Source of the DNA: Eledone cirrhosa
Taxonomy: Eukaryota
DNA length: 64,000 bases
Assembly: GCA_964016885.1 (NCBI GenBank)
Contig: OZ024751.1
Span: 22,630,001-22,694,000, forward strand
Reading direction: 5' to 3'
Under the pieces are notes generated by a model. It saw nothing but the letters and a program-made list of their open reading frames with translations. It ran no database searches and was not told where the DNA came from. The position numbers were made by a program, and so were the translations under genes. Shown one piece after another: positions 32,822 through 33,641 of the stretch (position 1 is its first letter; the number at the start of each line of letters is the position of its first letter).

Positions 32822-32893
<72 letters not shown>

Positions 32894-33056
32894 AGTGGAA
32901 GCTTAGTAAAATCGAAGCTTTGGCTGCGGCCAAGCAAAGTCGACCTACAATAAGGAATGAGTAGCAAAGCACTCAATAAGGGTAGGTCCTCAGAGTAATA
33001 ACATTACGTTTAGATAGCTTGACAAATTGAAAATTGCGGCAGGCCAAACCCAACCA

Positions 33057-33072
33057 TACAATACCATAACAA

Positions 33073-33164
<92 letters not shown>

Positions 33165-33174
33165 TTGTTTTGGT

Positions 33175-33180
<6 letters not shown>
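33057..33180. repeat. Palindrome with 22 bp arms around a (TA)n centre
   Basis: tacaataccataacaatgaata / tattcattgttttggtattgta (one mismatch). Confidence 0.85.
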
Positions 33181-33210
<30 letters not shown>

Positions 33211-33216
<6 letters not shown>

Positions 33217-33565
33217 TGTATATATAGTGTATTTTGCAATACACTGTATGCTTAATTAAAAGCATTTCGAAGACCTTATGCTATTGTTTTAGAGTAGTGA
33301 CAGTCTCACTTACTTTTAATTTTCAGCAAACAGGGGAGATAAAGCTGACAGAGCTATGTTTCGTACTGATTGGTACTTATCAAAGCCAAGTACTCCACCT
33401 GTTTGCTGAAAATCATGAGAATGTTTGATTCTTATAGAATTTCTAGTAATAATCAGGAACTGATTATACAGAGCGGATGCCGGTCAAGCAGAAATTGAAA
33501 ATTAGAATTGGCGTTCTGAAATAGCGATATATATATGAATGTATATATATACACTGTATGCTTAA

Positions 33566-33569
<4 letters not shown>
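33211..33569 (-). mobile_element. Retrozyme-like monomer (310 bp period, terminal direct repeat) in (TA)n
   Basis: atacactgtatgcttaattaa at 33239-33259 and 33549-33569; HHR-like fold inside. Confidence 0.65.
33319..33413 (-). ncRNA. Degenerate type I hammerhead within a long stem-I hairpin
   Basis: Minus strand: ggct-TTGATAA-GTAC(caatca)GTAC-GAAA-CA(tagctc)TG-TC-agct (33387-33343), enclosed by a perfect 16 bp stem; two core substitutions. Confidence 0.7.

Positions 33570-33641
<72 letters not shown>

Follow-up and report, generated by a model that had tools for sequence, protein, structure and literature searches.

We identified at 33 kb of the window (the whole 64-kb stretch of DNA that was analysed) what is probably a solo, 1.1-unit copy of a multi-copy 323-nt type I hammerhead repeat with a family-wide U3-A8 core and covarying stems. 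On this explanation the family is likely a non-LTR retrozyme, whose tandem transcripts would fold as double hammerheads, be cut at GUC, and be circularised and reverse-transcribed into (TA)n.

The locus and its hammerhead motif

The features of the locus are as follows, in window coordinates; X1, X4 and X9 are public runs that were mapped to the unit.

33179 to 33212, no strand: (TA)n on the RNA 3' side, merging with the unit's own short (AT) tract
33204 to 33226 and 33527 to 33549: repeat block 1 (23 bp), period 323
33240 to 33259 and 33550 to 33569: repeat block 2 (20 bp), period 310
33204 to 33259, minus: complete copy of the terminal repeat, holding 13 nt (33227 to 33239) that are missing from the second copy
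33527 to 33569, minus: second copy of the terminal repeat, 43 nt, with a 13-nt deletion
33227 to 33549, minus: a single 323-nt monomer, in circular permutation with respect to the predicted cut; the joint from 33549 to 33227 occurs in X1, X4 and X9
33398 to 33413, minus: outer stem (16 bp), 5' arm
33384 to 33396, minus: stem I, 5' strand (GGAG, loop 1 with UAC, GGCU)
33377 to 33383, minus: core UUGAUAA, with U3 (33383) and A8 (33378) in place of the C3-G8 pair
33363 to 33376, minus: stem II (4 bp) and 6-nt loop 2, with two compensated pairs in the family
33359 to 33362, minus: GAAA core box, with no variant row among the best 40 of 80
33349 to 33358, minus: stem III insert, palindromic in most family reads and broken at 33356 in the window copy
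33347 to 33349, minus: GUC triplet; cut predicted between 33347 and 33346 from hammerhead numbering
33335 to 33346, minus: stem I, 3' strand (AGCU 33346-33343, loop 1 33342-33339, CUCC 33338-33335)
33319 to 33334, minus: outer stem (16 bp), 3' arm
33569 to 33638, no strand: (TA)n on the RNA 5' side

The first-pass annotation of this DNA had described an exact 21-bp terminal direct repeat, which we found at 33239-33259 and 33549-33569, and (TA)n on both sides, which is also present. The longer gapped repeat that it put at about 36 bp exists as well, but its actual extent is 23+20 bp, in two blocks with periods of 323 and 310. Because the joints of the family return after 323 nt, the monomer is about 323 nt long rather than 310 bp, and the 13-nt gap is a deletion in the second repeat of the window locus. 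The locus ends away from the cut site, is 1.1 units long and contains one ribozyme; no second copy of the unit was found within the 64-kb window. The ends of the unit are direct, not inverted, repeats, and its GC content is 34%. No tRNA gene was found in the window, nor any exact match to the B-box-like motif GTTCRANNC inside the unit. In the window at large this motif is enriched (26 matches, 6.9 expected), in line with the many SINE-like repeats there; the repeat at 58800-58935 is presumably an octopus SINE. Just outside the unit, a 23-bp inverted repeat (33056-33078 and 33159-33181, 95.7%) flanks (TA)n at 33076-33161, its left arm closing a 187-nt single-copy segment (32892-33078). Elsewhere, 17333-17854 consists of 1.8 copies of a 285-bp unit that has a long near-perfect palindrome and adjoins (TA)n.

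Read on the minus strand, the motif runs GGAG..GGCU-UUGAUAA-GUAC/GUAC-GAAA-CAUAGCUCUG-UC-AGCU..CUCC, as had been proposed, and the perfect 16-bp stem said to enclose it (33319-33334 with 33398-33413) was found. The topology is type I: three stems surround the core, and stem I holds the open end. Every base pair drawn in the fold is a standard one, both in the window copy and in the family variants. U4, G5, A6 and A9, the GAAA box, A15.1-U16.1 and C17 are intact, and the 3-8 pair is Watson-Crick as U3-A8. The core lacks a literal CUGANGA and fits a documented U3-A8 variant (Perreault et al. 2011, PMC3088659). The 104-nt hairpin is markedly stable (z -6.9, unmatched in 200 shuffles); taken by itself, the 63-nt motif does not exceed its shuffles in stability (z -0.9). 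A hammerhead descriptor with a U3-A8 core matched one site in the window, the present motif, and the C3-G8 descriptor matched six. Over 40 block-wise dinucleotide shuffles, the mean was 0.075 sites (maximum 1) for U3-A8 and 0 for C3-G8, and a stricter filter left no U3-A8 sites in the shuffles.

An Rfam scan of the motif gave no match that reached its gathering score. The HH9 model (RF02275) scored 18.2 bits against 33325-33400 on the minus strand (gathering score 52; E 0.027 in 151 bases), aligning over model positions 1-77. The type I topology, UAC in loop 1, the 6-nt loop 2, GAAAC and GUC line up with HH9, but the stems and core positions 3 and 8 differ, and at 18.2 versus 52 bits the motif is not a member. 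The loop 1 and loop 2 sequence motifs align with the HH9 consensus; 33390 varies (12-42% overall; 16% in X1, 40% in X4, 42% in X9).

Other hammerhead motifs occur in the window. A second unit between (TA)n tracts (59512-60288, plus strand, core at 59873) has a canonical C3-G8 pair, a very long stem II and a 46-bp terminal direct repeat with a period of 684. It shows no similarity to the 323-nt unit; the absence of any BLAST match between the two agrees with the earlier statement that they are unrelated in sequence. A 223-nt segment between (TA)n tracts at 15260-15482 (plus strand, core at 15298) holds a hammerhead-like motif that has the canonical CUGAUGA and a 4-bp stem II and is single in the window. 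Minimal-type motifs with a short palindromic stem III lie at 15126 (+), 40627 (-), 53456 (+), 36485 (-)/36608 (+) and 45819 (-)/47967 (+), those at 15126, 40627, 53456, 36485 and 36608 having been found by descriptor. Several are in inverted pairs or beside inverted duplications, as in Penelope-like termini.

The repeat family and its core

With the monomer (33227-33549) as query, four of eleven listed public runs were mapped at 80% likeness. The family sample therefore comprises copies at least 80% alike, from contigs (X1, X4 and X5) and raw reads (X9) under three coded organism labels; run X1, from which the window may derive, does not count as independent of it. Totals of 3267 contigs in X1, 36 in X4 and 2 in X5, and 4650 raw reads in X9, mapped to the unit. 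Thus, as the first-pass annotation had supposed, the unit is not single-copy: it is a multi-copy, retrozyme-sized, non-coding hammerhead repeat family. The commonest joint, from 33549 to 33227, was present in 23 X1 contigs, one X4 contig and 207 X9 reads (about 45 starts), with up to 50 letters on the shorter side of the joint reads. Head-to-tail joints can also come from partial tandems, and no record spanning two hammerheads occurs among the mapped X1, X4, X5 and X9 records, which are all too short for it. A family-specific pattern had 0 matches in the viral contig and metagenome contig collections.

X9 read ends at 33254, 33318, 33441 and 33496 were considered as element ends and rejected. 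All are heterogeneous loose ends on AATT, and we infer a restriction-library artefact. Another 217 X9 reads depart from the unit behind 33385, 5' of the core, and continue in a single foreign sequence (agreement 0.93); this is likely one interrupted or truncated copy.

The likeness of the copies bears on whether this is a fossil family, in which the ribozyme was once active with U3-A8 and the copies, having ceased to be transcribed or mobilised, survive as dispersed DNA repeats. X9 reads differ widely from the window copy (138 of 4650 are at least 99% alike and 1652 less than 90%), and the lack of a two-ribozyme dimer among the mapped records also suits this view. However, copy divergence is usual in active retrozymes (PMC7229834, in its available text), 633 of the 3267 X1 contigs are at least 99% alike to the window copy, and the core and stems are kept across the three organism labels. 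We therefore regard a fossil family as unlikely.

The core letters do not point to decay either. Variants were taken from the best 40 of 80 rows, the weakest of which reaches 28% in some column, and we infer that the remaining rows are smaller than 28%. Among these best 40 there is no row for 33383 or 33378, that is, no C3 or G8 variant. In X1, all five T>C, two T>A and one T>G places at 5% or more were identified and none is 33378, with A8 holding in more than 95% of the depth; one A>G place in X1 and several places in X4 and X9 were left unassigned. All seven changed places in X5 were identified, none of them in the core, and X4 contig 15 (33353-33458) spans the core with 0 other letters. 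A minority C3 or G8 class may be present in the family. UUGAUAA is nevertheless the family state, in which U3 and A8 jointly replace C3-G8. U3-A8 is a natural hammerhead core variant, cited as active in vitro (PMC3088659). In animals it was first found in Penelope-like elements of Schistosoma, which contain about 1,300 U3-A8 minimal hammerheads (Cervera and de la Pena 2014, PMC4209133); the available text of PMC8490949 mentions schistosome core mutants, the U3-A8 swap not among them. Since U3-A8 is both the family state and a published natural variant, the two transitions that had been thought to restore CUGAUGA in a decayed hammerhead are one compensated swap, not decay.

The check for CTGATGA and stem covariation that the first-pass annotation had suggested, made here on the copies from the four read and contig sets, did not recover CTGATGA as the family core but did reveal covariation in the stems, on the U3-A8 background. 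Three changes are two-sided and compensatory. The stem II pair 33364/33375 is changed in 390 of 1282 and 395 of 1306 X9 reads, its neighbour 33366/33373 in 234 of 1258 and 244 of 1303, and the stem III pair 33352/33355 in 204 of 1284 and 214 of 1286, with the palindrome kept. The two stem II pairs differ in how often they are changed, which suggests that they changed step by step. Five of the six compensated places in X4 have an equal depth of 9.89 in two contigs (5.4+4.49), and the sixth has 12 in three; this equal depth in contigs 13 and 14 points to paired changes on the same molecules. In X1, 33364 (10.6%) outnumbers 33375 (4.3%), and the one-sided change still gives a U-G pair. A change at 33387 converts a stem I G-U to A-U in about half of X1 and X9. 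Under a random-placement null that ignores relatedness, at least three compensated pairs among nine changes have a probability of 1.4e-4; that the 13 core letters show no change is not significant by itself (P 0.11).

The single change proposed to restore a palindromic stem III likewise proved to be the family majority, with C at 33356 making up 82% of the depth in X1 and 52% in X4, and occurring in 913 of 1286 X9 reads. The window letter is a common minority state, also seen in an X5 contig and in X4 contig 15, and is not private damage. That 33356 is not C in 18-48% fits weak constraint on the palindrome. One X4 contig end reads the palindrome and the loop CAAAAA together. A loose X1 end at 33350, tried as a third palindrome, has a neighbouring core without read-through and was not counted.

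These data weigh on the original proposal that a canonical core was inactivated by transitions to U3 and A8, which for the family would mean a dead master copy amplified with no need of the ribozyme. Both changes are indeed transitions from the consensus, and Naiad Penelope-like elements, which prefer (TA)n, spread without canonical hammerheads (PMC8557442). However, together the changes keep the 3-8 pair, the compensatory stem changes lie on the U3-A8 background, and no C3 or G8 row is among the best 40 of 80; a core change in X4 contigs 13 and 14 would exceed 30% of depth, and none is listed. We consider a dead master very improbable. Similarly little credit is due to the unit being a pseudo-LTR terminal repeat fragment of a longer autonomous Penelope-like element, with a ribozyme that serves that element and not a small circle. 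Retrozymes are related to pseudo-LTRs (10.64898/2026.07.22.740005), most Penelope-like copies are truncated, and such elements gave the first U3-A8 cores seen in animals (PMC4209133), but the family joint leads back to the beginning of the unit itself after about 323 nt, and the hammerhead is of canonical type with loop 1 and loop 2 motifs, not minimal with a long stem II. A pseudo-LTR origin is compatible with a retrozyme family as regards origin. A hammerhead-like motif that arose by chance in a DNA repeat or MITE with a hairpin, despite the sub-threshold Rfam score and the unremarkable stability of the 63-nt motif (z -0.9), is extremely improbable given a descriptor rate of at most 0.075 per window and direct rather than inverted ends, and is largely refuted by three compensated pairs lying exactly in stems II and III.

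Predicted folding and life cycle

Folds were predicted with nearest-neighbour parameters, which take in neither tertiary contacts nor Mg2+, for family-majority sequences assembled from unphased per-site letters and for the window copy. The circular monomer of the window copy is predicted to be stable (z -5.6, 0 of 100 shuffles). In the best monomer fold, the stem I 5' strand and U3-U4-G5 pair with the stem III insert, at 2.3-2.9 kcal/mol below the hammerhead fold, and the monomer is thus predicted to be blocked, its ribozyme hidden by self-pairing. For a tandem dimer of majority letters, the double hammerhead has the lowest predicted energy; P is 0.96 for the stem III duplex and 0.90 for stem I. 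Restoring C3-G8 in silico lowered the stem I occupancy from 0.74-0.92 to 0.00-0.32 (ranges over two temperatures and two parameter sets), and for this loss C3 by itself suffices. A second subfamily changed in the same direction, with low occupancy either way (0.03-0.47 versus 0.01-0.05 with C3-G8). The window copy is predicted not to form the palindromic duplex (P 0.01; self-dimer -7.3 versus -20.1 kcal/mol), and restoring C3-G8 in it has either no such effect or the opposite one. In these models C3-G8 traps the core on the palindrome, possibly the reason for the swap. More tentatively, and we would lean against it at present, U3-A8 may be a selected design: C3 would lock the core on the long palindromic stem III, and the swap would preserve a switch in the family, with monomer circles silent and activity confined to the double hammerhead of multimers.

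The life cycle of animal retrozymes runs from multimer through cleavage and circle to reverse transcription (PMC7229834), probably with a Penelope-like helper (10.64898/2026.07.22.740005). By analogy, the present family would be transcribed as multimers, and the tandem transcripts, on the folding models, would adopt the double hammerhead and be cut at GUC into monomers. These may be ligated to circles and reverse-transcribed into (TA)n tracts by a helper, probably a Penelope-like enzyme. Naiad elements prefer (TA)n and Neptune elements show a microsatellite bias, and target-site duplications cannot be read in (TA)n flanks (PMC8557442). No Penelope ORF was evident by eye among the frames of at least 120 aa in 11800-64000.

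At the RNA 3' end of the window locus, the (AT) tract that belongs to the unit merges into genomic (TA)n. With ends off the cut site and a length of 1.1 units, this fits target-primed synthesis on a circle, in which nicked (TA)n would prime at the unit's (AT) tract and synthesis would run past one round; truncation of a linear multimer gives the same picture. Such a priming polarity is not general, because the internal TA tract of the 59.5-kb unit is at the other junction, on the RNA 5' side. The window copy cannot free a monomer by itself, since it has one ribozyme, and it is probably a dead end because it is solo and its minority letter at 33356 breaks the palindrome and weakens dimer pairing. 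Of the earlier description as an inactivated copy of a retrozyme family, the multi-copy, retrozyme-type family stands; the U3-A8 core is probably not what would inactivate the copy, and a dead end is probable on these other grounds.

Relation to known hammerhead systems

On the features tested, the family likely belongs to the non-LTR retrozyme type, with an uncommon but known core variant. Like animal non-LTR retrozymes (Cervera and de la Pena 2020, PMC7229834; Li et al. 2026, 10.64898/2026.07.22.740005), which are 170-400 nt, low in GC, non-coding and self-paired with one type I hammerhead, it forms head-to-tail joints and occurs in solo copies (PMC7229834). It differs in having U3-A8 as its family state and a palindromic stem III that is longer, at 12 nt. 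In the axolotl and newt units, cleavage is known to depend on dimers. The monomer of the present family is predicted to hide its ribozyme by self-pairing, which PMC7229834 treats as an exception among animal retrozymes (some mussel circles). Retrozymes are known as RNAs, circles and arrays, and the present family from DNA sequence. It shares the 3-8 swap and a palindromic stem III for dimer action with the hammerheads of Schistosoma mansoni Penelope-like elements, but those are minimal and mostly single, whereas the 323-nt family is of canonical type with loop 1 and loop 2 motifs in a head-to-tail unit (PMC4209133).

The U3-A8 core itself is therefore already known. In the literature we found no description of a canonical retrozyme unit with U3-A8 as its family state, although supplements and subscription papers may hold similar cases. 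A looser U3-A8 pattern matched 119 metagenome loci in four of 64 parts scanned; three of 120 matches had stems I and II, with no homologue of the 323-nt unit among them. One contig, L054 (383-602, minus strand), carries two hammerheads 147 nt apart, both U3-A8 (UUGACAA) and unrelated to the 323-nt unit, with a 7-bp stem I and a near-palindromic stem III, beside a 200-nt tandem repeat. Contigs L020 and L063 hold single, weaker candidates. Because the L054 tandem also has two U3-A8 cores, the variant is uncommon but not unique.

What appeared to be a dead ribozyme is thus likely a working family, and motifs that fail CUGANGA should be checked for a paired 3-8 swap before they are called decayed. 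If this is true, surveys of animals based on CUGANGA would have missed U3-A8 retrozyme families. If the folding prediction holds, a rare core variant would have a natural explanation that can be tested directly, and animal retrozyme circles would have a simple switch that keeps them from cutting themselves, a point left open in the available text of PMC7229834.
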